Below, in pieces: positions 3,075-33,417 of a stretch of DNA of 64,000 bases (its first letter is position 1; each line of letters begins with the position of its first letter). The stretch lies in contig JAUCBJ010005609.1 in assembly GCA_032718475.1 (NCBI GenBank), positions 1 to 64,000 of the forward strand, in the 5' to 3' direction. A program made the position numbers and the translations under genes. The DNA comes from Nemertoderma westbladi (Eukaryota; Animalia; Xenacoelomorpha). The notes below the pieces were generated by a model that was given only the letters and a program-made list of their open reading frames with translations, made no database searches and was not told the DNA's origin.

Positions 3075-3114
3075 TACGATAATTTTGCCATTCATTAACT
3101 ATCATATTTGTATG

Positions 3115-6100: not shown

Positions 6101-8464
6101 GGTACGAGGTATGGCTGATAGGATCGAGGTACAGCCGATTATGGCTGATAGGAATGAGGTACGGCCAATAGGAACGAGGTACAGCCGATAGGTACGAGGT
6201 ATGGCTGATAGGAACGAGGTATAGCCAATAGGTACGAGGTACGGCTGATAGGAACGAGATACGGATGATAGAACGCGGTATGGCTGATAGGATCGAGGTG
6301 CGGCCGAATATGGCTGATAGGAACGAGGTACGGCCGATAGGAACGAGGTACCGCCGATAGGATCGAGGTACGGCTGATAGGAACGAGGTACGGCCGATAG
6401 GAACGAGATACGGCCGATAGGAACGAGGTACGGATGATAGAACGAGGTATGGCTGATAGGATCGAGGTACGGCCGATTTATGGCCAATAGGTACGAGGTA
6501 CGGCTGATAGGAATGAGATACGGCCAATAGGAACGAGGTACGGCCGATAGGATCGAGGTACGGCTGATAGGAACGAGGTACGGCCAATAGGTACGCGGTA
6601 CGGCTGATAGGAACGAGATACGGATGATAGAACGCGGTATGGCTGATAGGATCGAGGTACGGCCGAATATGGCTGATAGGAACGAGGTACGGCCGATAGG
6701 AACGAGGTACCGCCGATAGGATCGAGTTACGGCTGATAGGAACGAGTTACGGCCGATAGGAACGAGGTACGGATGATAGAACGAGGTATGGCTGATAGGA
6801 TCGAGGTATGGCAGATTATGGCTGATAGGAACGTGGTACGGCTGATAGGAACGAGGTACGGCCAATAGGAACGAGGTACAGCCGATAGGTACGAGGTATG
6901 GCTGATAGGATCGAGGTACAGGCGATTATGGCTGATAGGAATGAGGTACGGCCGATAGGAACGAGGTACGGATGATAGAACGAGGTATGGCTGATAGGAT
7001 CGAGGTACAGCCGATTATGGCTGATAGGAATGAGGTACGGCCGATAGGAATGAGGTACGGATGATAGAACGAGGTATGGCTGATAGGATCGAGGTATGGC
7101 CGATTATGGCTGATAGGAACGAGGTACGGCTGATAGGAACGAGGTACGGCCAATAGGAACGAGGTACAGCCGATAGGTACGAGGTATGGCTGATAGGATC
7201 GAGGTACAGCCGATTATGGCTGATAGGAATGAGGTACAGCCGATAGGAACGAGGTACGGATGATAGAACGAGGTATGGCTGATAGGATCGAGGTATGGCA
7301 GATTATGGCTGATAGGAACGTGGTACGGCTGATAGGAACGAGGTACGGCCAATAGGAACGAGGTACAGCCGATAGGTACGAGGTATGGCTGATAGGATCG
7401 AGGTACAGGCGATTATGGCTGATAGGAATGAGGTACGGCTGATAGGAACGAGATACGGATGATAGAACGCGGTATGGCTGATAGGATCGAGGTACGGCCG
7501 AATATGGCTGATAGGAACGAGGTACGGCCGATAGGAACGACGAGGTACCGCCGATAGGATCGAGGTACAGCTGATAGGAACGAGGTACGGCCGATAGGAA
7601 CGAGATACGGCCGATAGGAACGAGGTACGGATGATAGAACGAGGTATGGCTGATAGGATCGAGGTACGGCCGATTTATGGCCAATAGGTACGAGGTACGG
7701 CTGATAGGAACGAGATACGGCCAATAGGAACGAGGTACGGCCGATAGGATCGAGGTACGGCTGATAGGAACGAGGTATGGCCAATAGGTACGAGGTACGG
7801 CTGATAGGAACGAGATACGGATGATAGAACGCGGTATGGCTGATAGGATCGAGGTACGGCCGAATATGGCTGATAGGAACGAGGTACGGCCGATAGGAAC
7901 GAGGTACCGCCGATAGGATCGAGGTACGGCTGATAGGAACGAGGTACGGCCGATAGGAACGAGGTACGGATGATAGAACGAGGTATGGCTGATAGGATCG
8001 AGGTATGGCAGATTATGGCTGATAGGAACGTGGTACGGCTGATAGGAACGAGGTACGGCCAATAGGAACGAGGTACAGCCGATAGGTACGAGGTATGGCT
8101 GATAGGATCGAGGTACAGCCGATTATGGCTGATAAGAATGAGGTACGGCCGATAGGAACGAGGTATGGCCAATAGGTACGAGGTACGGCTGATAGGAACG
8201 AGATACGGCCGATAGGAACGAGGTACGGATGATAGAACGAGGTATGGCTGATAGGATCGAGGTACGGCCGATTATGGCTGATAGGAACGAGGTACGGCCA
8301 ATAGGAACAAGGTACGGCTGGTAGGTACGAGGTACGGCTGATAGGAACGAGATACGGATGATAGAACGAGGTATGGCTGATAGGATCGAGGTACGGCGTG
8401 ATTATGGCTGATAGGAACGAGGTACGGCTGATAGGAACGAGGTACAGCCGATAGGTACGAGGTA
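3115..8464. repeat. ~5.3-kb satellite, ~20-bp unit GGTACGGCYGATAGGAACGA, with shorter variants and higher-order structure
   Basis: Direct tandem repetition. The ORFs at 5433-5780 and 5731-6078 translate identically, showing a 298-bp higher-order duplication. Confidence 0.97.
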
Positions 8465-8534: not shown

Positions 8535-10194
8535 AGGTCAATGCCAACCATATTAACCAATGTCCATTAAATGTGATTTTTGAAATTTGTTGAATTTTGT
8601 AATTAACTTTGAGAATTTGCCATAGTGATGGTTAGAAATAGCGATAATTTCTGCATATGAAACCAGAAAGTGCCCCAACAATTTCTTGGCCGTTATTGAG
8701 AGAAACGTTCTGGAATGCAAAAATTGAGAAAATTTTTGTGTCATGTATGGGCAATTTATAAATATTTTTTTCGTACTTTGTGTCCATATTCTTGAAAATC
8801 GTCGTTTAATGGCGGTTTGAGGTTGAGGTGTCCGGCAAGAGATATCAGATCGAAGTGGAAAGTTTTCTGGTGAGAAAAAATGTAAAATTTCTGTCACTAA
8901 AAATACATTTTTATAGAGTGACAACACAAAGTTTCATTTTCTGGGAAACTTTGACATGAAATGTGGGGCTAATTGTTTTTTTTCCTGTTAATAACAATGT
9001 GATACACAAAACTGTTGCATTTGGTCAACTGAAAACCGTTCATTCATATTAAAAAATTAATTTGAAAATGTAAATAGACAGTTTTTTGATGTCATGTATG
9101 GGACATTGATATGGTATAGGAAGGAATTTACATGGAAACGATTATTATAAATTTTGACATTTATTTTCCACTCCTCCATACTAGAATTTAAATCCAGTTT
9201 ATCGTCCTTCCCACTGCCAACTCCTGTTCCATTCCCAACTTCCATCCCACTCTCAACTACTGTCTGGCCCAATCTCAAAACCCTTTCCACAAATAGTTAT
9301 TTTTGGTAATAAGTTAATTTGGTCTGTTGTCAATTAAGGGGAAGGCGCAGGTTACAGTTTATCTGTGACTGGTAAGCCCCCAACCTTTAATTAAATGTAA
9401 GTAATTAGTTGTTTAGACCATGATTAACTTCTGCCCTCAATACAATGTCAAGTATGGGACATCCTGTCACGTTATTAGACATGGCAGATTTTTAAACCTG
9501 GCCAAATAAATATTTATGTAGCAGTCTCACTGATACAACCCATTCATGGCGAAACTATCTGAGAAATGGATGTGGTGATCTAAATCTTTATGAGTTCGCT
9601 TTTTCTAATAAAAAGAACCTCCGTTAAGTATGGGACACATTTTTGGACCATTTTGGACACGCTCGCTCACGCAATTTATTCATATGATCTGCTAAACCAC
9701 CAAAAATTGGCAATCTAATTGAAACACATGGAAGAATATGAGTGGAAGTGTTAACACATCGGGTTACTGGCCCATATTTGACAATTTATATGCCATTAAA
9801 TTAATCATTTACCGAGTCGGACCACGTAATTTTTTTTTTTGTATTTTTGATATCTCAAATTTACTACGAAGCTACGTTTATTTGTTCACAGGAATTATAC
9901 TGTGCAGGGATATTAATCGTTTGGCACCTGGATTGTAATTTTAATGGCCAAAATGGACCCCTAATCACAATCATAACATTTGAAAAATGTCCCTTTAGTA
10001 ACGATTTTTTTAAAAATTCGATGTAGCTATTTCACAAACTGTGGTTAGAGTGTATCACAGTAGGAGGGGACGATTATAGTGTATCTGGCGATCAAATTAT
10101 CAAAGCCAACCGACAATTCATTCTCGAATGATTTTACATTTTTGTATATTTTTTGTCCTGTACGTGACTTGGTCAATATGGTTGGCATTGACCC
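8535..10194. mobile_element. Non-autonomous DNA transposon, ~26-bp TIRs, AT target duplication (ISL2EU/Harbinger-group-like)
   Basis: Left end AT|AGGTCAATGCCAACCATATTAACCAA; right end TTGGTCAATATGGTTGGCATTGACCC|AT. The right ~550 bp recurs at ~51380-51947 and ~56800-57361, also followed by AT. The superfamily is inferred from the TSD and termini only. Confidence 0.7.
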
Positions 10195-15110: not shown

Positions 15111-15639
15111 ATTAGGTCACATGTTCTTGAGATATGGAGTATTAATTTCAAAGCCAGGTGCCATTTTATTAGCCCCTGATTTTTAATATTGATAGTAACA
15201 ATGTGTTGGCAAGCTGTGTTTTTCGAGGTGTTTGTTAATACACATTTCTAGGAAGGGATCTAGGGGTCTCAACCTCGAATGATAAGTTTATTTTACCGAA
15301 AATAACTTATCTTTTACTTGGGTGGAATTCCTTGACTTCTGGAGCCAGTAGGTGGATTTACCATCACCCCATCCCACCTCCAAGGACATGCATAGAACAT
15401 AGTAAACCACAATTATGAATAAGAATGGTGCAAGTGCGTCTCCCTGGAGGACTCCCCATAACATTTGGAATGGATCTGTGCCACCATCGAGATAACTAGA
15501 GACGGCGTCAAGACGCCATTAAGCAAGTCGTAAGTCACATAAAATCCTACCGTAAAGAAGTACTCCTCCTTTCCCTCAATTGGTAAACAAATCTTTTATT
15601 ATGTAGCACACATGTGTATGGGGCGCCATTGCCGCCAAA

Positions 15640-16263
15640 AAGAAGTCAGAATATAGAAATTGAAGTCAGAAAACGGAAGCCAGAAAACGGAATTCAGAAA
15701 ATGTAACTCAGAAAAAAGAAATGGAAGTCAGAAAAAAAATTGAAGACAGAAAAAATAAATGGAAGTGAGAAAACGGAAGTAAGAAAATGGAACTCAGGAA
15801 ATGTAAGTCAGAAAAAAGAAATGGAAGCCAGAAAACGGAAGCGAGAAAACGAAAGTCAGAAAATGGAACTCAGGAAAAAAATAAATGGAAGTCAGAAAAA
15901 AGAAATGGAAGTCAGAAAAGGAAATTGAAGCCAGAAAAAAGAAATTGAAGTCAGAAAAAAGAAATGGAAGTAAGAAAATGGAACTCAGAAAATGGAAGTC
16001 AGAAAAAAGAAATGGATGTCAGAAGAAAGAAATGGAAGCCAGAAAAATAAAATTGAAGTCAGAAAAAAGAAATGGAAGTGAGAAAACGGAAGTAAGAATT
16101 TGGAACTCAGAAAATGGAACTCAGAAAACGGAAGTCGGAAAATGGAAGTTAGAAGATGGAAGTCGGAAAATGGAAGTTAGAAGATGGAAGACAGAAAATG
16201 GAAATCAGAAAACGGAAGTCAGAAAATGGAACTCAGAAAACGGAAGTCAGAAATTGGAAGTCA
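15640..16263 (+). repeat. Array of ~14-bp AAATGGAAGTCAGA units (left subterminal repeats of a DNA transposon)
   Basis: Tandem degenerate units; the same unit occurs inverted at 18221-18408. Confidence 0.85.
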
Positions 16264-17119
16264 GGCTTTCAGTCAGTAGCTTATTATCACATTCAGCATT
16301 TCAATCCCAGGCTGCCTGCCAGGTGATGTTCAGTCAGGCTTATGTTTAGGAACCGAGCTAGGCCTTGGCAAGCGCCTCTATCTCTAGGCCTATGGATCTA
16401 CTTCTTTATGTTCACATTTCAGTATTTCTATTTTACAGTACTGCAGTACCGGTACCGGTACCGGTACCAGTACGTACTCCTACTCCAGTACAGCAGTAGT
16501 TCCTGTACATTACAGCTGTTTCATACCAGCACTCAGACTGATTGGTATATCTTTACCAAACCTATGTCACCTGCTGACCTCTACTGCTGTAGTACTGGTC
16601 TGTGGGTAGTGCTGTAAGTGTAAGTGTGGTAAAGGACCCCACTAATCCCAGCATAATCATAACACAATTAATTTCAGGAATTAACGACGAACTATATATA
16701 TCGTACCTTTAGGCCTTCGGGGCTTGGAATGTTTTGGGGTTGGGTTTAAAAATCCAATAGCGCGGGTATTTAATTATCCCATAGTGCGGACCAAATACCA
16801 GGATTATGATATTACTACCGATAGTTGGTCCGCTCCTATAGGCTTCCATTACAAATTTTACATTGAAAAGCATTAGGCCGGACCAAATACCAGTAGTACT
16901 GTATATATATAGGCAATCACTTATTTCTAAATCATTTAGCAACAGTGTTGTGTTTGTTCTGGGGGTGCATTGTCCAAAGTTATTGTCCTCATGCAGTGGG
17001 TTTATCTGACTGAGAGCGTTTGATATTACATCTGAAATCAATAGGGGCAACAACAATAATGCCACTGTTGATAACGCCAGTGTCTCTGTCTGCACATATT
17101 TTAATCGGCATAGTGTGCG

Positions 17120-18060: not shown

Positions 18061-18220
18061 ATTTAGGATTAACAATTTAGTAGAGGTTTACCCCAAGGTA
18101 TTGCATGCCTATATAAAATATTTATGATCACTTTTAAATTTAACCCTATTTTTCTATACCTCTTACTATTTTGGGCGTTGCCAGAGCATTGCTCAGCTGG
18201 ATATAGATGGGATATATTGC

Positions 18221-18408
18221 ATTTCTGACTTCCATATTCTGACTTCCATTTTCTGACTTCCATTTTCTGACTTCCACTTTCTGACTTCCATTTTCTAACT
18301 CCATTTTCAGACTTATGTTTTCTGACTTCCACTTTCTGACTTCCATTTTCTGAGTTCCACTTTTTGGCTCCCATTTTCTGACTTCCATTTATTTTTACTG
18401 ACTTCCAA
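18221..18408 (-). repeat. Inverted array of TCTGACTTCCATTT units (right subterminal repeats of the same transposon)
   Basis: Reverse complement of the 15640-16263 unit; the two arrays flank the transposase remnant. Confidence 0.85.
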
Positions 18409-18692
18409 TTTCTATTTAATATTTTTATTTATTAGCACACATATGGTTCGTATTTGGCAGAAAGATTCAGCGCCTCAAATAATATTTTAGAGAATGACTG
18501 CAACGCATCAATTTATTATCTTCTGCGAATCCAATGGTCTATGAATGCCAATACTTAATGTGTGGGGTGAGCCACGAAGTGAGCAAAGTCTTAGCATAGT
18601 GGTTCCAATATCGAGCTGTCCGTAGCCATCATCATCTAAGATTTGATCCCTATTATCTCGGTCAATCGTTGAAGAAATTAAACCATACTTGG

Positions 18693-19229
18693 TGTTAGCT
18701 TATTCAATCCCGCTAACACCCCATAAAGTTATAAGCCGATAAGCAATATTGGGAGCCACGAGATTGGGTAATTAACCAACTCGTGCCATCCCAATGAGAA
18801 TGGGAAGGAGAAGCACACAATGAGGGTCAGGGGCCAAACCCCTAACCCAGAGAGAATAGGTGGAGTGAACGGGAACACTCCAAAGGGCGCCAACAAGGGT
18901 ATCAACCAATCAGAGGGGGGAAAGGCATCGATTAGGTAGAGCAACAAGGCCAACCGTGCAATATAGCCACTTGGCAGTAATAATACCAATTCAGTTATCT
19001 CAGTGCAATACCGGTGCTAGATTAGGTTACATAGTTTTAGATAGGGAAGGACCGGGACTTTAGTTACCGTATCCCGCCTTCCGTATACGACAATATATCT
19101 ATATCTATATCTATACCTGCATATCATATTATATACGACAAACAGCACGAACTCATTTACTCTTTATACACGGCGGGGACGCGTGAACTAAAACCGGATA
19201 AACCGGGATCCCTCTTGGATCCCGTCACA
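18693..19229 (+). repeat. 5' LTR (537 bp)
   Basis: TGTTAGCTT...CCCGTCACA; no differences from 32376-32912 seen by eye. Contains CCAAT (~18906), a TATA-like AATATAG (~18960) and an Inr-like TCAGTT (~18991). Confidence 0.98.
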
Positions 19230-19298
19230 GTAACTAAATCAGCTGCCGCCCTAGATAAACTCTGTAACCATCAGCGACCAATCTAGAGATAAGGAAAG

Positions 19299-21728
19299 AT
19301 GAGTCAGTCGGGAGAAATAACACCGACGCGGACCCCGGACGAAGAACAAACGATCCGCGAGGCCGCGACCAGGCGGTATAGGCCCACGACGCCGGAGCCA
19401 TCAATAACGGGCGACCCGGAAGTTCAAGACGAGGGAGACCGTCTGGAGTCAGAAGCCGAGTCGAGAGGAGGGGGAGTCGAGTCGGAAGATAGAGAGAGCG
19501 GGCTCGAGGGAGAAGGAGACGAGTCGACACGGGACGAGGGTCGACGCACCGATGTCGCCGGCCAGCCACAGGCCGAGAGCGACGAACGGCCCACCGAGAC
19601 GACGACGGAAGGGCCGACGGTACGAGGAAGGACCCGGAGAGACGACGGAAGTGCCGATACCGATGTCGCCGGCCAGCCACAGGCCGAGGGCGACGGACGG
19701 CCCGCCGAAACGGCGACGGTGGGGCCGCCGGTACGACGTCGAACCCGGAGAGACGGACGAAGGGTCGGCGACGAGGACGTCGGGGTTTCTGAGCGACTTC
19801 GACGGGCCTACAACGCGACCCGGAGACTACTAGAGGAGGCCAGAAAGGGGAAAACGATAGACGAGGTAAAACTGAAGTCAGGACTAGGTAAGTCGGACAG
19901 ACATTTATACTATCTAATGCGTTTCGGGCAGAGAGAATTGGCCGAGGAGAGAGCGAGAAAGGTTGCCGAGGAACTGTATGACTCATGGCGGCATGGGGGT
20001 ATACAACCTAATGTAGTGTACATAGGGCCATATTTAATCGATGCCCGGGGTATAAAATTAATGGGTTGGAACAGACCTGAAGGGGGCGAATCCGAGGTTA
20101 ACCCCGAGGATTCGGCCTCGTCGGTCGGAGGGAGTTCCGGGAGGAGGGGGAAAGCTAGTAGATCGGGAAGGCGGAGGGAGTCCGTCGTAACCGATAAGTC
20201 TGCTACATCCTCCGCGAAAGAAAGACGGGTGAGAGAGGCAAGTGCCGCGTACCGTCTCGAGCTGATAGAGCAAGGTCAGAGGGAAATGGATAAACGGCTA
20301 GAGGAGGGGAGAATGCGGCTAGAGAGGGAAGCGGCATTGATTAGAGAAACCGGAGAGAGGGCCGAAAGGGCTTTGAGGGGCCTTAGGGAGTGTGAGGAAA
20401 AGGAGGAAAAGGAGTGTAGGGAACGTGAGGCGAGAGAGGAAAGGGAACGCAAAGAGCGTGAGGCAAGGGAAGAAAGGGAACGCAAAGAGCGTGAGGCGGA
20501 ACGCAAGGAGTATGAGGCGAGAAAGGAAAGTGAACGTAAGGAGCGTGAAGCGAGGCGAAGGGAGAGTGCTAGGAAAGTAGTAGAGTTGGCTGAGCGGGAC
20601 ACGCGGGAGTGTGAGAGGAGAATGACAGGAGCCGAGCGAGACCAGGAGGAATTAAAGAGACGCCAAAGTGAGCTTGGGGAACATAGGGTTAGACGCGCGC
20701 ACGAGCTGCAACTGGTGCGGGCGGGGGCGTCTGAGAGCGAGACAGGCTCGAGTATTTTAGAGGAGCCAGGGGCCGTGGATACATTTATTAATACCCCACT
20801 TACAGGGACCGCACGACAGACCCAAAACTGGTGTGACCGTACGGGCGGGGGGGGTAATAATGATAATGGTACAGTAGATGTGGTTAATATTAATAGTACC
20901 GTATGGGATAATTCTAATCAAACCTTTATTGCAGGAAATACTTTGCCTAGTGGTAGTAATTTAAATTTAAATCAGAACAATCTTAATATTAATGTAGAAA
21001 ATAATCCTAATATTAATGTAGCTAAGCAAAATAATCCAAATAACCAAAATAATAATAATTCAAATAATTTAATTAATGAGCCAAGCCCGAATTTACAAGA
21101 TAATTCAAATGATTTTATTTCGAACGAACGGGTTGATTCCGTTCCCAATACGGGTGCTATTAATGTAAACACGTCGGGCGTGTATGACCAGACAGATGGG
21201 GCCCAGGTAGGCCGCGTAGTTGGTAGGCAGGGAGTGGCTGGGTTAGGTAGACCCGGCGAGGGCCTGGTAGGCCACATAGTTGGTAGGCAGGGAGTGGCTG
21301 GGTTGGATGGACCCAGCGAGGGCCTGGTAGGCCACGTAGTTGGTAGGCAGGGAGTGGCTGGGTTGGATGGACCCAGCGAGGGCCTGGTAGGCCGCATAGT
21401 CGGTAGGCAGGGAGCAGAGGGCCTGGTAGGCCACGCAATAGCAGAGGGAGAGGCGGGGGTGAATAGACCCGACCGCGGTAGGGTTGATGTGTCGACTAGA
21501 GAGGGATATAGTAGCGGGATGAGAGATAGCGAAGTTAGATGTGGCGAGTGGGGGGGGGGGGGGGGGGGGGCTACGGGAGCCCCACAACAGCGAGTTAGCG
21601 GCGAACGGGAGGGGGCAGAGAGTGTCCCACAGCCGTCAGCGGATAATGCGAGGGCCGAAATAGGTAAACCGCAACAACCGGCGACGGAAAGTAATAGGGG
21701 GATTGCGAGTATCCCCAGCGGCGTGTGA
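19299..21728 (+). CDS. gag: N-terminal part of an extended Gag (charged coiled-coil, Asn-rich block, internal repeats)
   Basis: 809-aa ORF starting 69 nt after the 5' LTR. It ends at TGA 21726-21728, but the same frame stays open to 22538. Confidence 0.75.
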   Translation: MSQSGEITPTRTPDEEQTIREAATRRYRPTTPEPSITGDPEVQDEGDRLESEAESRGGGVESEDRESGLEGEGDESTRDEGRRTDVAGQPQAESDERPTETTTEGPTVRGRTRRDDGSADTDVAGQPQAEGDGRPAETATVGPPVRRRTRRDGRRVGDEDVGVSERLRRAYNATRRLLEEARKGKTIDEVKLKSGLGKSDRHLYYLMRFGQRELAEERARKVAEELYDSWRHGGIQPNVVYIGPYLIDARGIKLMGWNRPEGGESEVNPEDSASSVGGSSGRRGKASRSGRRRESVVTDKSATSSAKERRVREASAAYRLELIEQGQREMDKRLEEGRMRLEREAALIRETGERAERALRGLRECEEKEEKECREREAREERERKEREAREERERKEREAERKEYEARKESERKEREARRRESARKVVELAERDTRECERRMTGAERDQEELKRRQSELGEHRVRRAHELQLVRAGASESETGSSILEEPGAVDTFINTPLTGTARQTQNWCDRTGGGGNNDNGTVDVVNINSTVWDNSNQTFIAGNTLPSGSNLNLNQNNLNINVENNPNINVAKQNNPNNQNNNNSNNLINEPSPNLQDNSNDFISNERVDSVPNTGAINVNTSGVYDQTDGAQVGRVVGRQGVAGLGRPGEGLVGHIVGRQGVAGLDGPSEGLVGHVVGRQGVAGLDGPSEGLVGRIVGRQGAEGLVGHAIAEGEAGVNRPDRGRVDVSTREGYSSGMRDSEVRCGEWGGGGGGATGAPQQRVSGEREGAESVPQPSADNARAEIGKPQQPATESNRGIASIPSGV

Positions 21729-22492
21729 CCGAGCAGAGAGAGACAGGTTGACGTCGTAAGAGGGCGGACGAAGCGTCGAGCCCGATCAGAAGAGGGAAGA
21801 AGAACAGTGGGGTTTAACCGGGAGGTCGACGAGAGATCTCACGGGCGGGAATACTCCACTGAAAGGAGAAGAAGAGAAGACAGTAGTAGAAGTATCGCCG
21901 CGAACGATAGAAGAGCGAGGACGGATAGCGAGCCGTCGGTAGTCGAGATGAGAACAGAGAGTCAGTGGGGTCGGACTCCGGGAGATTGCCGTCGCCCCGG
22001 AGAGATGCGACCCGGCGAGGCGCACTACGCGCCGAGAGAGGGGTACGCGATGTACCGGTACGAAGACGAGAACAGTAGAGAGGGGGGTCGAAGAGAAACT
22101 TTCCGACGGAATACACCTATCGATCGAGAATACGGTAGCCGCGGGGAGGATTATTCGAGAAGAATAAACTTCGATCCCGAACAACACATGCAGACTGTAG
22201 GACATACTGTAGGCCTTACTGCACATACTGTAGGCCATACTGAGAGAGGCAATGTAGGCGATAGGATAGCGTGGACAACGGGATTAAACCCGGAAGTCGC
22301 GGAATACATACCGGCGGGTAGGCCAGAAGCTGATAGGCCTATACCGGTACCAGCACAGCAGTATGACTACAGCATGCAGGGACATAACATATACCCAGGG
22401 GAGGGGGGAATTATTGCGGATAGGTGCATGGGCCCCAACATATTAACATCAACCCCAGTACCAAACATACTGGTGGGGGGGGGGGGGGGGGG
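21729..22492 (+). CDS. gag: In-frame continuation of Gag after the TGA, up to the poly-G run
   Basis: Same frame as 19299 and stop-free from 21729 (PSRERQVDVVRG...) through ORF 21807-22538. It overlaps the Gag-core frame at the G run near 22475-22492. Confidence 0.6.
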
Positions 22493-23890
22493 CAGGGTGA
22501 CATTCCCCCATCACAATATCAACAATATACCCCGATAGGAGCGAGAACAACGAGACCCTTGGATGAGAATAGGTCGTGTGACACAGAAATATGGAGGGGG
22601 CCGCTACCCCCGATGACATACCCAAGTCAGAGAAAGTCAAGAAATAGGACAGACGGAACGCACCAGACAGGAGAAACTATACAGCACCCATCGAATCCAT
22701 TGGAAGCACAGGCGATGGGGATGGCCACGTTGATCGATGCGTTGAAAACGAGGATCGAGTTACCACCCGTGGAACCATTCAAATTCGATGGGAGTAGGCC
22801 GGAAGAATATCTACAGTTTCGGCGCATGTATAGTAACGAAATACTAACAAAAAACTTGACGCAGGCGGAGTGCCTAAAGTATCTACAAGTGTACACGGGA
22901 GGCCCAGCATACGACATCGTGAGGCAATATCAAGGGATAGAGGGCGGCTTCACGACAGCATGGCGGGCACTGGATAGGGAATACGGGCACCCGGCCAAGA
23001 TCATCAGGCAGACACTGAGAGGCATAACATCGGGTGGCCTACAGGATAATCCCGTTAGCATTAAGACGTTCGCTAACAAAGTCGAAAAGGCGCTGATCGT
23101 GCTGAAGACGCTAGACGCGCCATACGAGCTCAATGCGTCCAACAACATCACCACGATAGCGCAGGCACTACCAAACTGGCTGCGCAACAAGTGGAGAAAA
23201 ATCGCCTTCTCCACTCGAGATAAGAAGGGTGCGGAACCGGGTTTAGAAGAAATGTCAAACTTCTTAAACTACGAGGCTGAACTAATAACTGACCCAGTCT
23301 ATAGCGAAGATAGCCTGGGAAAGGGACCAAAGACAGACTACCATAGACCGAAACCAGAGCATAACACATCAAACGCATTACCGAGACTCAGGCAATCATT
23401 GCCATATGCAGCGACGCAGGGGACTGCAAGTCCACAGCTAGCCGAGGATAAGACAACACCATGGAGCGGACAGGGAAACAATAACAACACGAATAAACAT
23501 AACCCCAGTACGTCCAGTAGGCTAAATCCAAACAATAAGAATAGTAGGGACTTTGGTACAAACGCAACTGAGATACGCAATGCACTGTATAAAGAGGGCT
23601 ACGACCCAAAGAGCAAATGCCAGCTACACGCAAATGCGCTTCATCAAACCATGAACTGCAGGTACTGGCAGGCGCTACCTAGGCAGGATCAGATAGATTA
23701 TGCGTTCAGCAATAAAATCTGCTCGCGATGTGTAATGAGTGGACATAGAGCAAGGGAGTGCAAGGAGAAGCCGATAAAATTTGGTCAAAGGAGAGGCCAA
23801 ACGATGGCGACGAGCACAGTAGGAGCGAAGAAGAGAGGAACGGTGCTACTTGGAGTAGTACCCGTGCGAGTGATTGGGGAAGGCAATTGA
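22424..23890 (+). CDS. gag: BEL Gag core (DUF1759-like capsid region) with two Zn knuckles and the start of the protease
   Basis: LPPVEPFKFDG..EEYLQF...LKYLQVYTGGPA..IV...AW.AL.REYG; knuckles CQLHANALHQTMNC and CSRCVMSGHRAREC; VLLGVVPVRV. Confidence 0.9.
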   Translation: MHGPQHININPSTKHTGGGGGGGQGDIPPSQYQQYTPIGARTTRPLDENRSCDTEIWRGPLPPMTYPSQRKSRNRTDGTHQTGETIQHPSNPLEAQAMGMATLIDALKTRIELPPVEPFKFDGSRPEEYLQFRRMYSNEILTKNLTQAECLKYLQVYTGGPAYDIVRQYQGIEGGFTTAWRALDREYGHPAKIIRQTLRGITSGGLQDNPVSIKTFANKVEKALIVLKTLDAPYELNASNNITTIAQALPNWLRNKWRKIAFSTRDKKGAEPGLEEMSNFLNYEAELITDPVYSEDSLGKGPKTDYHRPKPEHNTSNALPRLRQSLPYAATQGTASPQLAEDKTTPWSGQGNNNNTNKHNPSTSSRLNPNNKNSRDFGTNATEIRNALYKEGYDPKSKCQLHANALHQTMNCRYWQALPRQDQIDYAFSNKICSRCVMSGHRARECKEKPIKFGQRRGQTMATSTVGAKKRGTVLLGVVPVRVIGEGN

Positions 23891-26800
23891 TCAGTAACAA
23901 CGCTAATGCTGGTTGATAGTGGAGCTGCCTTCACATTAGTCGAGGAATGGGTGGCCGAGGAGATAGGATTGAGAACGAGGCCAAGCAGGATGGCGGTAAC
24001 AACCATCTCTAGCAAAGATGAGATCCTGGAGATGAGAACAGGACGGTGCGCAATTGCAGCAATGGCACCAGGATGCGACTATGGGGCAACCATCGACCCC
24101 ATCCAAGTGATAGAGTCAATTAATATTAATGCCAGGCGACCAACCAACATCGAGGTCGAGCAGTATAAATTCCTGGACGACATTGACTTCTCAATCCCAG
24201 ACGTGGACGTTAGGAAGGTGTCCATCATAGTAGGCATGGACTGCCCAACGGCCCACGAAAGAATGCAAACGGTCTTCGGCGAAGACAAGCAGAGTGACCC
24301 GGTGGCCATATTAACACCATTCGGGTGGACGCTGAGTGGTCCAATTAAGAGCAAGATACCATTTAGGATGTCGGAGACATCAGGATGCATGTTCGCGGGA
24401 ACAATGCAGGAAATGGGTGACGAGGGAGCAGAGGAGCAGCTTAAAAGACTGCTCAGACAGGATTTCGAGGGACTGAAAGAAACCGGAGTCGGGACCTCAG
24501 TAGAAGACAAGCAGGCTTTACAAAGCGTGGAGGAATCAATGACATGCAATGAGGGACGGTATACTATAGGAATGGTATGGAAACTACCGAAGATACCGCT
24601 GCCCGACAATAGGGGGATGGTACTCACGAGACTCCGCAAACTGAAACAAACACTAAAACGGAGCCCCGAGAAGAATGAGTACATCCACAGAACAATTAAG
24701 AAGTACGTCGAGAAAGGATGGGCCGTGGAGTTACCGGTCGACGAGCCGAACACGGATAGAACATATTACCTGCCACTGCACGTGGCTTTAGATCCAAAGA
24801 AAGGTAAACTAAGGATGGTAGTCGACGCATCGGCAAAGACCGACGGAAAGTGCTTAAACGACTACCTGTTAGAAGGCCCAAACATATACAATTCGGGCAT
24901 AGAGGTGTTACTTAGATTTAGAAATGGGAAACACGCCTTCACGTGTGACATAGAAGGCATGTTCAACCAAGTCTGTGTAACGGAGGAAGATAGCGACAGT
25001 CAGCGCTTCTTATGGTATAACGGCGAGGAAGAACCGTCGATAATACCGGCATATAAGATGGTAGTACAGAACATGGGGGCCAAGTCGTCTTCATTTACGA
25101 CGACTATGGCAGTGAGAGACACAGTAAAGGGGAAGGAAGATAGATACAGCAGTAGGGCCGTCGATATGATTCGACGCGGCTTCTACGTAGACGACGGAAT
25201 GGAGTCTGGAAATACGGTTAAGGAGATACTGGATACAGGGCGCGAGGTTCGCGACATCCTAAAAGGATCCGGCTTTAACCTGACCAAATTCCAATCCAGT
25301 TCGGAAGAATTTATCAAAGCCATAGAGGACAGGAAACCAGAATCGACCATGGATAATCCCACAACAGCCAAAGGGCAGGACATGGCGATTAAGAGAACGG
25401 AGTCCCAGCAGAAGGCATTGGGAATCATGTGGGATAGAGAGACAGACGAACTGAAGTATCAGCTGAGCCAGGAGGGCGCAGACATCCACACGAAGAGGGG
25501 TTATGTATCGTATATAGCAAGGATATACGATCCCCTAGGCCTAGCATCCCCATTATTAGTCACGGGGCAACAGATACTCAAGAGAGTATACAAATTGAAA
25601 GATGAGTGGGACGTAGAGGTACCAGAGGAAATCAAGAAACAGTGGAGCAAGTGGACAGGAGACTTGGAGAAGATGGGAACATACAACATGCCACGGGTGT
25701 ATTTCCCGGATGGGAACATGACGAATCTGGACCTACACATGTTCTCCGACGCGTCGTTGGAAGCGTACGGAGCGGCACTCTACTTAGTACAACGAGAGGG
25801 GGCTCATAAGCCAAGACTAGCCTTTAGTAAAGCAAAGTCAACGCCACCAGATTCAGCATCAGTTCCCAAGTTAGAATTAACAGCTGCGAGACTAGGAGTA
25901 AGAGCCACAGCCTACCTAGTGGATACTATTCCCAACATAGTGGAGACACACTACTGGACGGACTCCATGGTAGTGCTTGGTTGGCTACATAACGAAAGGA
26001 CGAGATACCTGATATTCGTCGCGAATAGAGTGGACGAAATAAGGGCGAGCACAGAACTGGAAAGGTGGCACTACTGCCCAACAGACGAGAACCCAGCGGA
26101 CTTGCTGTCGAGGGGGGTGGAACGCCACACTTTCCTGAAGAAAGAATTATTGTGGCAACATGGGCCACAATTTCTGAGCGATAAGGAAGCCTGGCCGCCG
26201 ATGAGGAAGGTGGACCCGGGCTCGGAAGTAATATCAGAAGGAGAAGAGGGAGATTCAGAGGGAGAAGAGATATACTCCCAGATGGTGAGGGAGATTAGGG
26301 ACGTGCAACCAGGATGGGAACTGTGCGATAACCCGACGGATAAACTCCTCAGCTACAGTTCTAGTTGGTATAAGACCAAGAAACTAGTGGCGTACTGGAG
26401 AGCCTTCGGAAATTTCCTTGCGGGAGTTGGCAAGGACAAGAAGATCAGGACAACCATAGATCTGGAAGGAGCGGCCAAGGCAGTGATCCGCTATGAACAA
26501 CGGAAGAACTACGGCGACGAGGTGGAACGCGTCGGTAACCAACAGCACCTCCGACGGGACAGCGAGCTGATTACGCTGTCGCCACAACTCAATGACGACG
26601 GGATTCTAGTAATGAATTCTAGGGTGGGATATAACAACAGCATAGTCGTACCACCGAAACCCATCATCATTCCTACAGGATCGCCAATAGTCCACCAGAT
26701 TATATGGGACTCCCACAAATCGATATTACATGGGGGCACCAACCGAACCCTCACAGAGATAAGGAGGACCTATTGGGTCAAACAACTGAGGAAGAAGGTA

Positions 26801-27823
26801 AAAGCGGTAGTGGGGCAGTGCCAGACCTGCCGACGAGCGAAGAAGGAGCGAGCCGTACAGGAGATGGCGCCACTACCGGCAAGTAGGGTAAGACAGCACG
26901 ACCCGCCATTTACGCATTGCGGTGTGGACATGTTCGGGCCGATCAAGATCAAAGTGATGCGACACACGGAGAAACGCTATGGCATTATCTTCGTATGCAA
27001 CAATACGCGGGCGGTAGGGATAGAACTCGCCCAAGATGCAACCGCATCAGCGTTCATTAACGCCTTAGAAAGGTTTAGGGACCGCAAAGGTGGGACGATC
27101 GCAGTGATATACAGCGACAACAGCACCAACTTTGTGGGCGCAGAGAGTGAGATGGCAGAGGCCTTGGACATCTTGGAGGGAGAAGAAGTCAGGGCAGCCA
27201 TGAGACGACGACAAGTAAAGTGGGAGAGAAGGACGCCGTATGCACCACATACACTAGGATGCGTCGAGAGACTGGTGGGCAGTTCAAAGCGTCTAATGAC
27301 GAAGCTAATGAACACCCACATGGTCACTGAGGACGTCTTACGGACAGTACTTGCGAAGTGCGAGGGGATCATTAATAGCAGACCGCTATATCCGGAGAAT
27401 GATGACCCTGAGTCATTAGACGTGCTGACGCCTAGCCATTTCCTGATGGAAAGGCCAGCGACCATCGATATGCGGGGTGTAGACCCAGATGACATATACT
27501 CCCGCCAAAGTTGGAAAGTCGCAAAGGCAATAAGCGCAGAGTATTGGAGGAGGTGGGTCGAGGAATACCTACCCACGCTCCATAAGCGAAGCAAGTGGAG
27601 GAAGCCAAACAGGGAGTTAAGAGTAGGAGATCTCGTAATCGTTACGGATGATACTATCATCAACAACCAATGGCGGTTGGCGAGAGTTGTAGGCACCTAC
27701 TCCGACGAGGACGGAAGAGTCCGATCGGTAGAAGTGCGGATAGGTGGAAAGATAGGTGCGAAGGACAGGAAAACCTACAGGAGAGCAGTAGGCAAATGCT
27801 GTCTGCTAGAAGGGGCACCTTAA
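23891..27823 (+). CDS. pol: BEL Pol: aspartic protease, RT, RNase H, integrase, DUF5641-like C-terminus
   Basis: LVDSGA (PR); YLPLH..KLRMVVDAS..CLND.LLEGP, CDIEGMF, FYVDD (RT); LHMFSDAS..AYG, PKLEL, WTDS, NPADLLSRG (RH); H-x3-H..CxxC, VDMFGP, SDNSTNF, VERLV (IN); WRRWVEEYL..VGDLVIV..W.LARV. In frame with Gag across TGA 23888-23890. Confidence 0.97.
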   Translation, partial: SVTTLMLVDSGAAFTLVEEWVAEEIGLRTRPSRMAVTTISSKDEILEMRTGRCAIAAMAPGCDYGATIDPIQVIESININARRPTNIEVEQYKFLDDIDFSIPDVDVRKVSIIVGMDCPTAHERMQTVFGEDKQSDPVAILTPFGWTLSGPIKSKIPFRMSETSGCMFAGTMQEMGDEGAEEQLKRLLRQDFEGLKETGVGTSVEDKQALQSVEESMTCNEGRYTIGMVWKLPKIPLPDNRGMVLTRLRKLKQTLKRSPEKNEYIHRTIKKYVEKGWAVELPVDEPNTDRTYYLPLHVALDPKKGKLRMVVDASAKTDGKCLNDYLLEGPNIYNSGIEVLLRFRNGKHAFTCDIEGMFNQVCVTEEDSDSQRFLWYNGEEEPSIIPAYKMVVQNMGAKSSSFTTTMAVRDTVKGKEDRYSSRAVDMIRRGFYVDDGMESGNTVKEILDTGREVRDILKGSGFNLTKFQSSSEEFIKAIEDRKPESTMDNPTTAKGQDMAIKRTESQQKALGIMWDRETDELKYQLSQEGADIHTKRGYVSYIARIYDPLGLASPLLVTGQQILKRVYKLKDEWDVEVPEEIKKQWSKWTGDLEKMGTYNMPRVYFPDGNMTNLDLHMFSDASLEAYGAALYLVQREGAHKPRLAFSKAKSTPPDSASVPKLELTAARLGVRATAYLVDTIPNIVETHYWTDSMVVLGWLHNERTRYLIFVANRVDEIRASTELERWHYCPTDENPADLLSRGVERHTFLKKELLWQHGPQFLSDKEAWPPMRKVDPGSEVISEGEEGDSEGEEIYSQMVREIRDVQPGWELCDNPTDKLLSYSSSWYKTKKLVAYWRAFGNFLAGVGKDKKIRTTIDLEGAAKAVIRYEQRKNYGDEVERVGNQQHLRRDSELITLSPQLNDDGILVMNSRVGYNNSIVVPPKPIIIPTGSPIVHQIIWDSHKSILHGGTNRTLTEIRRTYWVKQLRKKVKAVVGQCQTCRRAKKERAVQEMAPLPASRVRQHDPPFTHCGVDMFGPIKIKVMRHTEKRYGIIFVCNNTRAVGIELAQDATASAFINALERFRDRKGGTIAVIYSDNSTNFVGAESEMAEALDILEGEEVRAAMRRRQVKWERRTPYAPHTLGCVERLVGSSKRLMTKLMNTHMVTEDVLRTVLAKCEGIINSRPLYPENDDPESLDVLTPSHFLMERPATIDMRGVDPDDIYSRQSWKVAKAISAEYWRRWVEEYLPTLHKRSKWRKPNRELRVGDLVIVTDDTIINNQWRLARVVGTYSDEDGRVRSVEVRIGGKIGAKDRKTYRRAVGKCCLLEGAP

Positions 27824-27959: not shown

Positions 27960-28610
27960 GTAGGCAGAAGTTAGTTAAGAGGTACGTAGTACCTGGTCAG
28001 TTAGTTAGTTAGAAGGTACGTAGTACCTAGTCAGTTAGTTAGTTAGAAGGTACGTAGTACCTAGTTAGTTAGTTAGTTAGAAGGTACGTAGTACCTAGTT
28101 AGTTAGAGAGTTAGAGGGTACGTAGTACCGATAATTAGTCAGAGAGTTAGAGGGTACGTAGTACCGATAGTTAGTTAGAGAGTTAGAGGGTACGTAGTAC
28201 CGATAATTAGTCAGAGAGTTAGAGGGTACGTAGTACCGATAGTTAGTTAGAGAGTTAGAGGGTATGTAGTACCGATAGTTAGTTAGAGAGTTAGAGGGTA
28301 CGTAGTACCGATAGTTAGTTAGAGAGTTAGAGGGTACGTAGTACCGATAGTTAGTTAGAGAGTTAGAGGGTACGTAGTACCGATAGTTAGTTAGAGAGTT
28401 AGAGGGTACGTAGTACTGATAGTTAGTTAGAGAGTTAGAGGGTACGTAGTACCGATAGTTAGTCAGAGAGTTAGAGGGTACGTAGTACCGATAGTTAGTT
28501 AGAGAGTTAGAGGGTACGTAGTACCGATAGTTAGTTGGAGAGTTAGAGGGTATGTAAGTACCGTTAGTTAGAAGAGTTAGAGTTAGAGGGTACGTAGTAC
28601 CGTTTGTTAG
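27960..28610 (+). repeat. Internal tandem array, ~18 units of ~36 bp (AGTTAGTTAGAGAGTTAGAGGGTACGTAGTACCGAT)
   Basis: Direct repetition between pol and ORF3; each unit contains the hairpin GGTAC-GTA-GTACC. Confidence 0.93.
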
Positions 28611-29107
28611 AAGAGAGAGAGTAAGAGGTAAAAGGAGATATAGATATAGATATTAGTTAGCAGTTAGTAGCGTTAGTAGCGAGAGGGGGGCATATGAGTA
28701 CAGCTGGGTAAGTCGTGTGGCCACACGACGCATACTGCTGTACTGCATAGACCCACAGAGTAGGCCAGAATGTGGATTAGAGAATAGAATAATCCATAGG
28801 CAGTAGTAAGTAGTAGGACAGTAGAATCAAATTAAAATAGATAAATAAATAGAATAGGGCTGAAAGTTGTAAAATAGTGGCAACACAAGGGAAGTTATTC
28901 TAGAACATAATAAAAGTAACGGACAGAAATTGTAAATTACGCTCATTTACTAGCTTCAAAATTAATTAGGAATAATTTAGGTTAAAAGGCGCAGTTAAGT
29001 AGGAAATAGGCCATTACCGAACCGTACAGAACATCTTAGATACATCACTCATCTGTATTGCGCCTTGGTAAGGCACCACCTTGCAGGTGAGCGAGTGAAC
29101 GTTCGGA

Positions 29108-31657
29108 ATGGCGAGTAAGTTAATCAGAAAGAGAAAAGCGGAGTCAGGAGGAAAGGAGATACTGGTGGATTTCACCGAGAGGCATCCGGAAGAGAAGACG
29201 AGAGGATACTACGAGAGGTTGGAAAGGGGTCACGCGGCGCGAGCGCTGCAGGATCACTTCAGGGAGATGCACGAACAGCGGCTGGTCGGGACCTACGGGA
29301 TGCCGTCGCTGGACAACGCGATCTTCCAACACTTCCACTACGTGGTGAAAGGGGACGAGGCGAAGTTCGGGATTCCGAAGTACCCGAGGGAATCACCGAG
29401 GAAGGACTGGAAGAGATTCATAGAGTCCGTCAACAGAGGAGGATATATGATCCTGGATGATGAGGGAACCGTGGAAGACGAGGCGGGTTCGAGACGAGGA
29501 ACAGCGGGGTCAGCCAGGACCATACTCCTACATTTGGCCGCGCCAAATGGGGACATCTTCTTATTCGACCTAGGGACGTATGGGAAGAAGGACGGGCCAA
29601 AATTAGACCGGTTACCGAAAGCGGTACAAGTCTTAGTGAGAGAGAAGTCGACGACGAAAGTGGGATCGGCGATTCGCGAGGACGCGGAGAGGATCATCGG
29701 TCCGGACGCCACCAACCTCCTGGATATGCAGAAAGTCTTTATGGCTATGACGGCACCGGATGGGTTGGGGGTAGTCGAAAACACAGGCCAATGCGGGGCG
29801 GTGGCGATGGGCCAATTATTGGGGCTCGTATGCCACAAACCGATGGACTGGGGGAAGTTTAGGGAAGAATACGGAGCAGAACTAGCGAACTCGCTAAAGT
29901 GGGGAGCGAGACCGGGAAAGCAGGAGGTATATCAGTTCCGCAGGGGAGCGATAAAGGTATATCAGAAGCGATATATCCTGCAGGAGGACTGGATGATGAT
30001 AAGTTTGCTTAACTTATTCATGACCGTGATTATCGAGAGGGAACCAGGGGCATTTCTGTTATCGGGATCACCCCTAAGCTACAGGAGAGCCTTTAAAGTG
30101 GCCTTTGACGGTCTGGTAGACCACCCGGGGCTGAAGGGCGAGTCGGTGTACTACAACAGCCGACATCTGGTAGACGGGGAGACAGATACACCGTATCAGA
30201 GATGGGAGCAGCTAGAGACGGATAGACGAGAAGCAAAGCGACTGGAAGAAGTCGCTAGACGGGAGAGGATAGAAGCAGAGGAGAGGGAAGAGGAGGCCAG
30301 GACACAGAGTTACGGCTTCGAGGAACAGGCAGGCCTGGACGAGCTTCATTGGACTTCATCAGGGAGTTCGGGGGAGTCTCTAGGGCGAGAATTGGGATGG
30401 ACGGTGGGATCGCCGAAACAGTCGACGTCGGGGTTGCAAACGATGCCCATACCAGCGGGCGCCGAGGGCGACCAACCGCCAAGGAAGTTAAGGGAGCTAG
30501 AGGGATGGAGAGCTACGGGCGGGAGCCAAGGCGGGAAGGGACGTAGTGGATCCATCGGGATACCGGGATTGGAGACACTACCAGAAGAGGAGGACGACGA
30601 CGGCGAGTTCGGAGAGATGCCGCCCATCGAGAGGATAGGCCACTCGGACACAGACTGGGTTGGCGGAAGGGTGGTGACGGCCAGTGGGGCGAGGGCCTTC
30701 TGGAACAGATCCGGCAAGCGGACCTGGGTGCACGAGGAGCCGGCGATGGATTTCGCGGGGAGCACCATCAGGTTGGGCGAACAACCGGGGACTGCACCAC
30801 GGGTAGTATTCGGGGAGACGATGCCCGAGAGGGGTGGAGAGATCGACGTAGATAGAGAGACCAACGTAGAGAAGTTCGCCTACCAGCGACTCCACAGACC
30901 GCGGAGATCACTTGGGACGAAAGACGAGGTGGGACGGGAGACATTGGTACTCGGCTGCGACTACTGTGGGAGACAGACCCATCGGGAAAGCAGCTGCCTA
31001 TACCGGTTCCAAAAGGGAACCTTTTGTCTCTACTGCAGAGAACCAAGCCACAGGATGGGGGCGTGTCCACGGTTGCATAACCAATGTCCAAAGTGCCACT
31101 TTCGGGGACACTACGGACGCGAGTGCGACTGGATGAACGACGAGGAGAAGTTCACAAGATTCGAGGAGTGGGCCGACGTCGGGGCCATGACGCGCCAGCG
31201 CATGAAGGCCCAGGAGTTCAAGTGGGGTTTCTTCCTTATCAATCAGGAGACTCACATGGAAATCATAAAGCGGAGGCTACCGTTTACCTACCAAGAGGTA
31301 GCAACGGCGGGGTCGTACGCCGGAGTGATGAACACGCAAAGGTATTTGGACAGGTGGACGCCAGAGAACCGAAGGGAGTTTAGGGATTTCTTGGCGGAGC
31401 ACGTACCAAAGGCAATGAAAATGATCCTATGGGACGCCACCAGAGGGAGACAACTGGGCCACTCTGAGGGGCCACCGGCGAAGCGATATCGGGCACTAAT
31501 AACACCAGCGCCCAAGGAGCCAACGACCGGGATCAGCAGGGAGGTGGCGGCGAAGGTCCGAAAGCAGAAAGCGGATGATGCCAGAGGAACGGTGATAACC
31601 AAGAAACGGCCCAGGGAAGAGGACGCCAGGGGGAACTATCCCCAGAGGAACAGATAG
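29108..31657 (+). CDS. Accessory ORF3 of the BEL element: DEDDy (RNase D/WRN-exo/EXD-like) 3'-5' exonuclease, coiled-coil, and three CCHC zinc knuckles
   Basis: Intact 849-aa ORF. ExoI ILDDEG (D117/E119), LLHLA..GDIFLFDL, LP.AVQ.LV.E..T.KVG..IRED (ExoII D192), NLLDMQ, QKRYILQED (ExoIII Y289, E293/D294). Knuckles CDYCGRQTHRESSC, CLYCREPSHRMGAC and CPKCHFRGHYGREC. Confidence 0.85.
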   Translation: MASKLIRKRKAESGGKEILVDFTERHPEEKTRGYYERLERGHAARALQDHFREMHEQRLVGTYGMPSLDNAIFQHFHYVVKGDEAKFGIPKYPRESPRKDWKRFIESVNRGGYMILDDEGTVEDEAGSRRGTAGSARTILLHLAAPNGDIFLFDLGTYGKKDGPKLDRLPKAVQVLVREKSTTKVGSAIREDAERIIGPDATNLLDMQKVFMAMTAPDGLGVVENTGQCGAVAMGQLLGLVCHKPMDWGKFREEYGAELANSLKWGARPGKQEVYQFRRGAIKVYQKRYILQEDWMMISLLNLFMTVIIEREPGAFLLSGSPLSYRRAFKVAFDGLVDHPGLKGESVYYNSRHLVDGETDTPYQRWEQLETDRREAKRLEEVARRERIEAEEREEEARTQSYGFEEQAGLDELHWTSSGSSGESLGRELGWTVGSPKQSTSGLQTMPIPAGAEGDQPPRKLRELEGWRATGGSQGGKGRSGSIGIPGLETLPEEEDDDGEFGEMPPIERIGHSDTDWVGGRVVTASGARAFWNRSGKRTWVHEEPAMDFAGSTIRLGEQPGTAPRVVFGETMPERGGEIDVDRETNVEKFAYQRLHRPRRSLGTKDEVGRETLVLGCDYCGRQTHRESSCLYRFQKGTFCLYCREPSHRMGACPRLHNQCPKCHFRGHYGRECDWMNDEEKFTRFEEWADVGAMTRQRMKAQEFKWGFFLINQETHMEIIKRRLPFTYQEVATAGSYAGVMNTQRYLDRWTPENRREFRDFLAEHVPKAMKMILWDATRGRQLGHSEGPPAKRYRALITPAPKEPTTGISREVAAKVRKQKADDARGTVITKKRPREEDARGNYPQRNR

Positions 31658-32366
31658 GTTCCCAGAGTCGAGGGATAGAGACTGAGACTGGGACGTGGTG
31701 CGCCTGGAAGGCGCTGCGTGGGACGTACGAACTATTAAGTACAAATTTAATTAATGCAAATAATCATATAAGTGCAATTTGTATGTAAGTATGTAGTAAT
31801 TAGTAATCTACGAATATATACGCTGGGAGTAAGTACTATAGTCATACAACCTTTCTCAATTAGCTACTGGGACTGGGGGATAACTGACTATGGCACTATG
31901 GACGAGACACCAGACAATTTCACACTTCTTGAGTGCGACGGCACAAGAGGGGGGGGGGGGGGGAGATTCGTCAGAAGGGATGAGGTAGTCAGAATAGGGT
32001 TGAGGGACAGAGTAGTAGGTGCGAAGTGCGAAGAGAGTGCGGACGCAATTCTAGTGTGGGGGGGGGGAGAATAAGAGACTGAGTAAGGGATGAGGAGGTC
32101 CGAGTGTATGAGAGAGTTAGGATGAGAGTGAAGAAGAGATAGGGCGGAAGTGTTGGGGAAACAAAAGTTGCGTGAGAGGTGAGCGCGATCGGCCCGACAT
32201 GAGACGCCAGGCACACGGGGTAGCGTTATCATACCCATCGGGGGCGGCCTGGAAAGCCGGCTCCGAGAGAAAAGAATTCCACCCCACACCCGATACTAGA
32301 TCGGGATCCAGCGGGATTGTAGCGCACTTTTTGGTTGATGCTATCTTCTTACCGGGAAGATAGCAT

Positions 32367-32375
32367 GGGGGGGAG
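32367..32375 (+). other. Polypurine tract (GGGGGGGAG), preceded by an 11-bp hairpin at 32338-32366
   Basis: Abuts the TG of the 3' LTR; upstream sequence is ATGCTATCTTC-TTACCGG-GAAGATAGCAT. Confidence 0.85.
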
Positions 32376-32912: not shown

Positions 32913-33417
32913 CTTGGTACGTAGTCATTTAATAGTTTAATAATTTTACAAATTAAATTTCGCTGGCCTTCGCACACTACATTGGTTAGTTGATAAGAGT
33001 TGGATAAGAACTTTACAAACAAGCATATACAATACAAGGCTAAAATCATGAGGAAATTATTGTTCCACCATTCAAAGGATAAGGAGTCAAGTGGAAACTT
33101 TTTGTTCTGTCCAATAAATTAGTCTGAGTGTAGCCTGGTGTATGTGGAATATTATACACAGCTTCAAACTATGACCATTCTGTTGTAATGATCTGATGAA
33201 TTATAATAGCTGTTGTGATGACAGCTGATAGAGAGCTGTTAGCGAAATGATTATTTTGTTCTGTGAGAAAGAGTAGTCGGAGAGGAGTCGAGGTATCAAT
33301 AGATTAATAATAACAGCTGTTGTCATGAATTCAATTCAATCGCACCAAAGAAGAAATATGATGAATCATTCTTATATTTGTAAATAAAATGTTTAGTTAT
33401 TGAGATGTTGGGATGTT

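Follow-up and report, generated by a model that had tools for sequence, protein, structure and literature searches.

Probable self-priming of reverse transcription in a BEL/Pao retrotransposon from Nemertoderma westbladi

The 64,000-nucleotide stretch of Nemertoderma westbladi DNA analyzed here (the window) carries a BEL/Pao retrotransposon whose reverse transcription is probably primed by a piece of its own RNA, independently of tRNA. The mechanism is a known one, in a family that is not described as using it. The initial annotation had suggested tRNA-independent self-priming in a BEL element, and the suggestion is supported by complementarity between leader and own LTR in distant relatives and by sibling copies free of TGG.

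The element and its coding content

The element is 14.2 kb long, with 13.1 kb between its LTRs. Its main parts are as follows.

18688-18692, with a second copy at 32913-32917, no strand: target-site duplication, 5 bp
18693-19229, + strand: 5' LTR, 537 nt, TG...CA, the same letters throughout as the 3' LTR
19299-23890, + strand: long gag region in three pieces, with stops at 21726-28 and 23888-90 and a frame change near 22424-22538
23891-27823, + strand: pol of the BEL/Pao type (protease, RT, Peptidase_A17, integrase, DUF5641)
29099-31657, + strand: ORF3, 852 aa, downstream of pol, with a possible exonuclease likeness at its N terminus (a lead only)
32354-32375, + strand: polypurine tract
32376-32912, + strand: 3' LTR, 537 nt, which repeats the primer arm at 32742-50

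The TG...CA LTRs, target duplication, and polypurine tract are features of BEL/Pao elements, as is a pol with the order PR-RT-RH-IN and Pao-type domains, for which the top matches in the protein search were all to PF05380. Pfam domains recognized on the element are DUF1759, which falls in the last gag piece, aspartyl protease, Peptidase_A17, an integrase zinc finger, and DUF5641; the families found in the test of pol were PF05380 (1.5e-39), PF18701, PF17921, and PF03564. The closest database proteins are 32-42% identical to pol; the protein libraries contained no close relative (best, 42%), and none was found in a search of viral contigs. Membership in the Tf1/sushi group was considered and ruled out, since pol is of the BEL/Pao type and not that of a Ty3/gypsy chromovirus.

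The N-terminal gag region (19299-22538, 811 + 269 aa) is unusually long, charged, and of low complexity, without a Pfam match, and it is repetitive internally and interrupted by an in-frame TGA at 21726-28. Despite its identical LTRs, this copy is perhaps defective, since gag is split in three and a stop is present at the start of the protease region.

The N-terminal part of ORF3 may resemble a 3'-5' exonuclease, a lead that comes from an Atlas match (0.93) to a cluster with PF01612 in 50% of its members and partly from what we take to be exonuclease motifs. ORF3 had no Pfam match, no PDB match, and no homologue within the length range searched, and its single-sequence fold (pLDDT 31) was unusable. 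Several Cys/His motifs resembling knuckles lie near its end. Between pol and ORF3 (27988-28671) there is a tandem array of 36-bp units in about 14 or more copies.

The element sits among other repeats. Just left of the insertion, two arrays of 14-bp units in opposite orientation, about 2 kb apart (15637-16274 and 18194-18415), resemble the arms of a foldback element, and to the right there is an ORF fragment of a non-LTR (LINE-type) reverse transcriptase (RVT_1, 33579-34961). Units of 20 bp (higher-order) and 25 bp make up long satellite arrays at 3038-8400 and from 11116 on, and a tandem duplication of about 5.4 kb (51269-55526 and 56684-60265, 95-99% identity) has ORFs of 250-280 aa; part of it also matches 9664-10011.

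The primer-binding site and its complement in the LTR

The features of the LTR and leader that bear on priming are the following.

19059-19067, + strand: 3' arm of the primer, fully complementary to 19230-38; the primer is predicted to end at C19067
19068-19078, + strand: 5' strand of the R/U5 helix, stacked on the primer helix; predicted cut at 19067/19068
19172-19181, + strand: 3' strand of the R/U5 helix
19183-19228, + strand: U5 stem (19183-86/19225-28) and 8-bp hairpin (19204-24)
19186-19202, + strand: variable A-rich stretch including the AACTAAA competitor (19186-92)
19230-19298, + strand: leader, followed by ATG at 19299
19230-19238, + strand: predicted non-tRNA primer-binding site (PBS), adjoining the LTR

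As the initial annotation had noted, the leader contains no TGG. The 18-nt host-tRNA PBS in the ICTV description of the family, which is a description and not a taxonomic criterion, is lacking from the element, and a search of the element for RNA families gave no credible family. Two other sources of primer were examined and rejected: a tRNA encoded by the element itself, there being no tRNA gene in the element or the window, and a primer built by splicing, since no GT..AG removal of at least 30 nt within 18900-19229 gives a match of at least 10 nt to the start of the leader.

The first nine letters of the leader are instead the exact reverse complement of 19059-67, with the perfect match ending at 9 nt. 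The element has in this respect a feature of Tf1-type priming, a PBS beside the LTR that is complementary to that LTR, and no tRNA site. The chance of such a match, put at about 0.002 in the annotation, came to 0.00195 among 20,000 dinucleotide shuffles of the LTR; it rises to 0.0063 when offsets of 0-3 are allowed, again by dinucleotide shuffles, and to p = 0.025 with offsets of 0-9 and one G.U pair. The 9-mer alone is modest evidence, so the weight of the argument rests on relatives.

The neighboring structural features proposed in the annotation were all recovered. The U5 hairpin is in its place, TCAGTT at 18991 and TTAGTT at 19060 are both there, and the CCCGCC/GGCGGG stem (19073-78/19172-77) is present but belongs to a longer helix than described, 19068-78/19172-81. 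The second AACTAAA also exists, but the idea that it acts as a conserved switch did not hold up, because no part of U5 varies more among siblings than 19184-94. AATAAA and ATTAAA are absent from the LTR, and the hexamers closest to the LTR end that resemble a poly(A) signal are ACTAAA and GATAAA, within 19186-19202. An AT-rich (TATATC)n microsatellite at 19090-19135 falls in the large loop that the predicted R/U5 helix encloses.

RNA folding

Folding of 19059-19240 gave a three-way junction as the minimum-energy structure (z -2.4; 3 of 200 shuffles were as good), in which the 9-bp helix stacks directly on 19068-78/19172-81 and the U5 stem bears the hairpin. The primer helix is favored in the short fold, with a probability of 0.62, and disfavored in longer folds, where a competitor helix of 19186-97 with 19052-65 is preferred in ViennaRNA by 2.0 kcal/mol when the fold begins at 19059 and by 5.2 kcal/mol when it begins at 18993. 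With a longer leader the primer helix has a probability of 0.00-0.10, and after a cut made in silico one of 0.11, which speaks against self-priming. The folding model ignores coaxial stacking and chaperoning by nucleocapsid. The competitor stretch is not conserved among sibling copies.

Sibling copies in the same organism

The family is abundant and diverse among contigs from sequencing runs of the same organism. Three contigs (X4 record 17, X5 record 27, and X5 record 18) span the junction of LTR and leader with at least 31 letters on each side, and they carry gaps of only 0, 6, and 9 letters, so none of them has an extra 18-nt site. Sibling copies with a normal TGG PBS, which would have pointed to a deletion in this copy, were not seen among these three.

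Variation was tabulated for the LTR outside 19030-19125, the 5' arm region. The full table of substitutions at a frequency of at least 6% in four runs has 10 rows. There are none in 19168-84, and the only one in 19230-38 is 19234 C>T (8%, 7%, 0%, and 42% in runs X1, X3, X4, and X5), which would still pair, as G.U with 19063. The PBS is nearly fixed, whereas the second AACTAAA region, 19184-94, has many substitutions and indels (the indel tables have 16 and 98 rows beyond those considered here). In another table of variants, none of the 30 listed rows, out of 300, falls in either 9-mer, a result of little weight. In the U5 hairpin the loop and inner letters vary and the outer arms are kept, and one contig has an altered inner hairpin with pairing retained. 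Many diverged contigs can be aligned only from 19168 to 19231-40, with flanks that cannot be aligned, which marks the R/U5 3' arm, the U5 hairpin, and the first bases of the leader as a conserved core. Some subfamilies diverge directly after 19231, so that their PBS is different.

Distant BEL relatives

An alignment-driven scan yielded 79 metagenome loci of BEL elements with 30-37% pol identity. In thirteen of these relatives the LTR end was set by a direct repeat, and with the element in the window they make a set of 14. Two loci (L038 and L074), with repeats that do not end at an LTR end of the TG...CA type, were excluded from the leader/LTR tests and L059 was added; the LTR ends of L064 and L067 were shifted by eye to the last shared ACA/ATA, and L018, the two LTR copies of which are 88% alike, has the arm in its 3' LTR copy only.

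A TGG site opens the leader in 3 of the 13 relatives, and there is no match there to the own LTR. The other ten have helices with their own LTR, of 9-12 bp in six and 6-8 bp in four (L029, L048, L061, and L067). When leaders and LTRs were exchanged among the 14 elements, the mean helix was 7.71 nt for own pairs and 5.43 nt for cross pairs (permutation p 1e-5, without the use of labels). The ten non-TGG relatives alone gave 8.6 against 5.56 nt, and the three TGG elements 4.3 against 5.0 nt. Six of the 14 own pairs had helices of at least 9 nt, as against 7 of the 182 cross pairs, and a control with 3' flanks gave 0 of 14 at p <= 0.05. A blind scan that does not depend on repeats reached p <= 0.05 in 8 of 46 scannable relatives, with about 2.3 expected (33 of 80 records were not scannable, and L011 and L013 are near-identical); a looser scan, a count without a null model, brought in L047 and L050. 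All sets together contain ten distinct PBS sequences with own-LTR helices of 9-12 bp, so the covariation between arm and PBS by which the annotation proposed to judge the pairing is seen across distant families, each matching itself in different letters. A search of metagenomes with a two-motif pattern gave 0 matches.

The arrangement of the arm is also shared. Pairing begins 0-9 nt, mostly 0-4 nt, past the LTR end; the arm almost always ends in AC, and in nine relatives it begins at the A of AGT, mostly in TCAGT, TTAGT, or TATAGT, which we take to be Inr-like. Of 14 relatives, 12 have a poly(A) hexamer downstream of the arm, which places the arm toward the 5' side of the RNA. Short folds, which run from the start of the arm to slightly beyond the PBS, form the primer helix in 11 of 13 relatives, with P of 0.93-1.0 over most pairs, and the addition of 25 nt of leader lowers its P to at most 0.43 in 5 of those 11. 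Three of the four relatives with only 6-8 bp have an Inr-like AGT at the arm start and a mismatch or bulge near the arm 5' end; these four may use very short or splice-built primers.

Our trees are quick searches, of 67 rows, 39 rows, and 29 rows (with ten rows dropped). All 11 of the rows labeled as self-type fall in one clade of 51 rows (99%), which excludes L029 and the three TGG elements. The self-type side also has named proteins, known for pol only, that belong to fish, crustaceans, a cnidarian, an echinoderm, and a nemertean. The element in the window is a long branch, outside the self-type clade under the mixture model (67-row and 29-row trees) and on the side of that clade under LG+G4 (39-row tree); its grouping with a 4-row TGG clade, a group named after the trees had been inspected, was rejected (p-AU 0.018). 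Because its placement shifts between trees, the relatives are firmer evidence of analogy than of shared ancestry.

The upstream arm and the length of the primer

Upstream of the 9-mer, three further features concern the start of the RNA and its pairing.

18960-18996, + strand: TATA-like box (18960-66) and Inr-like TCAGTT (18991-96)
18995-19058, + strand: upstream arm, with predicted imperfect pairing to leader 19239-19292
19239-19292, + strand: remaining leader, the partner of the upstream arm, with 6 nt between its end and the ATG at 19299

The RNA likely starts at A18993, a position suggested by presumed TATA-like and Inr-like consensus motifs and by the point where pairing begins: the TATA-like box is about 30 nt upstream, and pairing begins two bases past A18993. 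The upstream arm and leader form a duplex of -36.9 kcal/mol, which 24 of 5000 shuffles equal (p ~0.005), the window of the arm having been picked after the pairing had been noticed. Windows of the LTR that pair best with the leader begin at 18984-18996, and 12 of 1300 internal windows pair with it equally well. The initial annotation had counted it as a difficulty that the best Inr lies some 65 nt too far upstream of the complementary site. That objection falls away, since those 65 nt likewise pair with the leader, and the start site turns into support. The primer is probably a 5' fragment of about 75 nt, as judged from this pairing. Between it and a short, Tf1-like primer starting at 19059-62, which would work by the same mechanism, we lean modestly toward the longer one; its length would be no hindrance, as only the paired 3' end matters.

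The extension was also compared with cross pairs. The element in the window ranks 0 of 32, and across 16 relatives the extension gives p 0.005. It is strongest where the arm has no Inr start (L015 and L058 rank 0 of 32, and L063 ranks 3); L018 and L064 rank 5, L050 ranks 7, and L047, at 19, has no extension. Most arms that start at an Inr are without it, the exceptions being L029 (rank 4) and L067 (rank 5). These ranks suggest two architectures, a short arm starting at the Inr and an arm with an upstream extension, of which the element in the window would be the long extreme.

Alternative explanations

It is unlikely, in our estimation, that the pairing of LTR and leader is a conserved RNA structure that serves a different function, such as concealing the 5' poly(A) signal, packaging, or regulating gag translation, and that the primer is an unrecognized host RNA, for example a tRNA half. 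Priming by half-tRNAs without TGG is known from Copia lineages in the excerpts available of PMC6317226, and the extended pairing stops 6 nt short of the ATG. A host primer would fix the sequence of the PBS, and against this the ten PBS sequences each follow their own LTR and the TGG-type elements lack the pairing; moreover, pairing always begins 0-9 nt past the LTR end, where the 3' end of a primer must sit.

A primer derived from the 3' end of the RNA is less probable still. The same arm is present in the 3' LTR, of which 32742-50 would be the partner of the PBS, and the RNA beyond it could be lost through polyadenylation cleavage or through trimming by ORF3, a weak exonuclease look-alike. 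Within a short distance 5' of 19067 there is no poly(A) hexamer, and 12 of 14 relatives have theirs past the arm; trimming of the 3' end would, we infer, delete the strand-transfer acceptor. The link between priming and the ORF3 exonuclease that the annotation had raised can be dropped, for in all 12 self-type relatives checked the gap from pol to the 3' LTR is only 60-523 nt, which leaves no room for ORF3, and ORF3 is thus not required for priming.

That the 9-mer arose by chance (p 0.002-0.025, by the freedom allowed), or that a normal TGG site was deleted in this copy, which does have stops in gag and at the gag-pol border, is most improbable, since siblings that span the junction have no insertion, diverged subfamilies retain the block 19168-19231/40, and the pattern returns in other letters in relatives (p 1e-5).

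Proposed mechanism

Self-priming, the reading that we prefer, would proceed as follows. The RNA would start at A18993, and its first 75 nt would fold back onto the leader and close a multi-way junction that also involves the R/U5 helix and the hairpin of U5; in an alternative version a shorter, Tf1-like primer would begin at 19059-62. The RNase H of the element would cut between 19067 and 19068, a position predicted by analogy with Tf1. Base-paired with G19230, the freed 3' end, C19067, would next prime synthesis across U5. The product, minus-strand strong-stop DNA, would be transferred to the 3' R.

The primer of a retroelement is copied back into the PBS in every cycle, so self-priming would itself keep arm and PBS matched. 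The same copying might also have produced the long leader complement. A broader picture, to which we give slightly less than even weight, combines these points: much of the aquatic BEL/Pao radiation would be self-primed, with two architectures, and the present element would have a separate or basal origin and a capped 75-nt primer covering the whole leader, the leader complement being a trace of plus-strand synthesis copying that primer into the PBS.

If self-priming holds, BEL/Pao would be the third LTR superfamily to use it, the mechanism would be common in animals, and many BEL elements without an annotatable PBS would be accounted for. The proposal names exact RNA ends that can be tested, a start near 18993 and a cut at 19067/68, and the long-primer forms, unlike the 11-nt Tf1 model, would probe what RNase H recognizes.

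Comparison with known systems

The ICTV profile of the Belpaoviridae (PMC8742986) describes a PBS of 18 nt for host tRNA-Arg or tRNA-Gly, a genome of 4.2-10 kb, and replication that it calls poorly understood. Priming by host tRNA is the only kind it gives, in agreement with the remark in the annotation that BEL elements are generally described with tRNA sites. No report of self-priming in BEL/Pao elements was found among freely accessible papers, and term searches of the accessible text of five BEL papers (PMC3118150, PMC554778, PMC6238403, PMC8556966, and PMC8220671) found no discussion of priming. The present element shares with the Belpaoviridae (Semotivirus) the LTRs, polypurine tract, DUF1759 gag, PR-RT-RH-IN order, Peptidase_A17, and DUF5641; it differs from the profile (PMC8742986) in having no tRNA PBS, a length of 14.2 kb, and an ORF3 that is not env. 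An extra ORF past pol with an exonuclease likeness is also found in the bdelloid Juno and Vesta LTR elements, the ORF3s of which are described as DEDDy in the available portion of PMC5408684; that portion has nothing on priming, and "PBS" occurs in it 0 times.

Self-priming is described for the Tf1/sushi and Tcn1 elements and for the TAR copia lineage, according to excerpts of PMC6317226, and for Tf1, Tj1, and chromoviruses it is treated in the accessible parts of PMC7175516, PMC4600332, PMC5443660, and PMC3601003. Tf1/Tf2 of Schizosaccharomyces pombe, Tj1, and the other Tf1/sushi chromoviruses of the Ty3/gypsy type resemble the present element, as far as the available sections of PMC7175516 and PMC4600332 go, in the lack of a tRNA site, in a PBS beside the LTR that is complementary to the 5' RNA of the element itself, in flanking RNA structure, and in an RNase H cut at the primer 3' end, which is predicted here. 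They belong to a different superfamily, and self-priming in the present element is predicted from sequence. The Tf1 primer consists of the first 11 nt; that of the present element is probably about 75 nt, with a perfect end of 9 bp and a long imperfect extension. The TAR group of plant Ty1/copia elements and the Tcn1 clade belong to other superfamilies, with plant or fungal hosts, but they offer a close parallel in the available text of PMC6317226: there too, self-priming is predicted from sequence in a lineage that is otherwise primed by tRNA.
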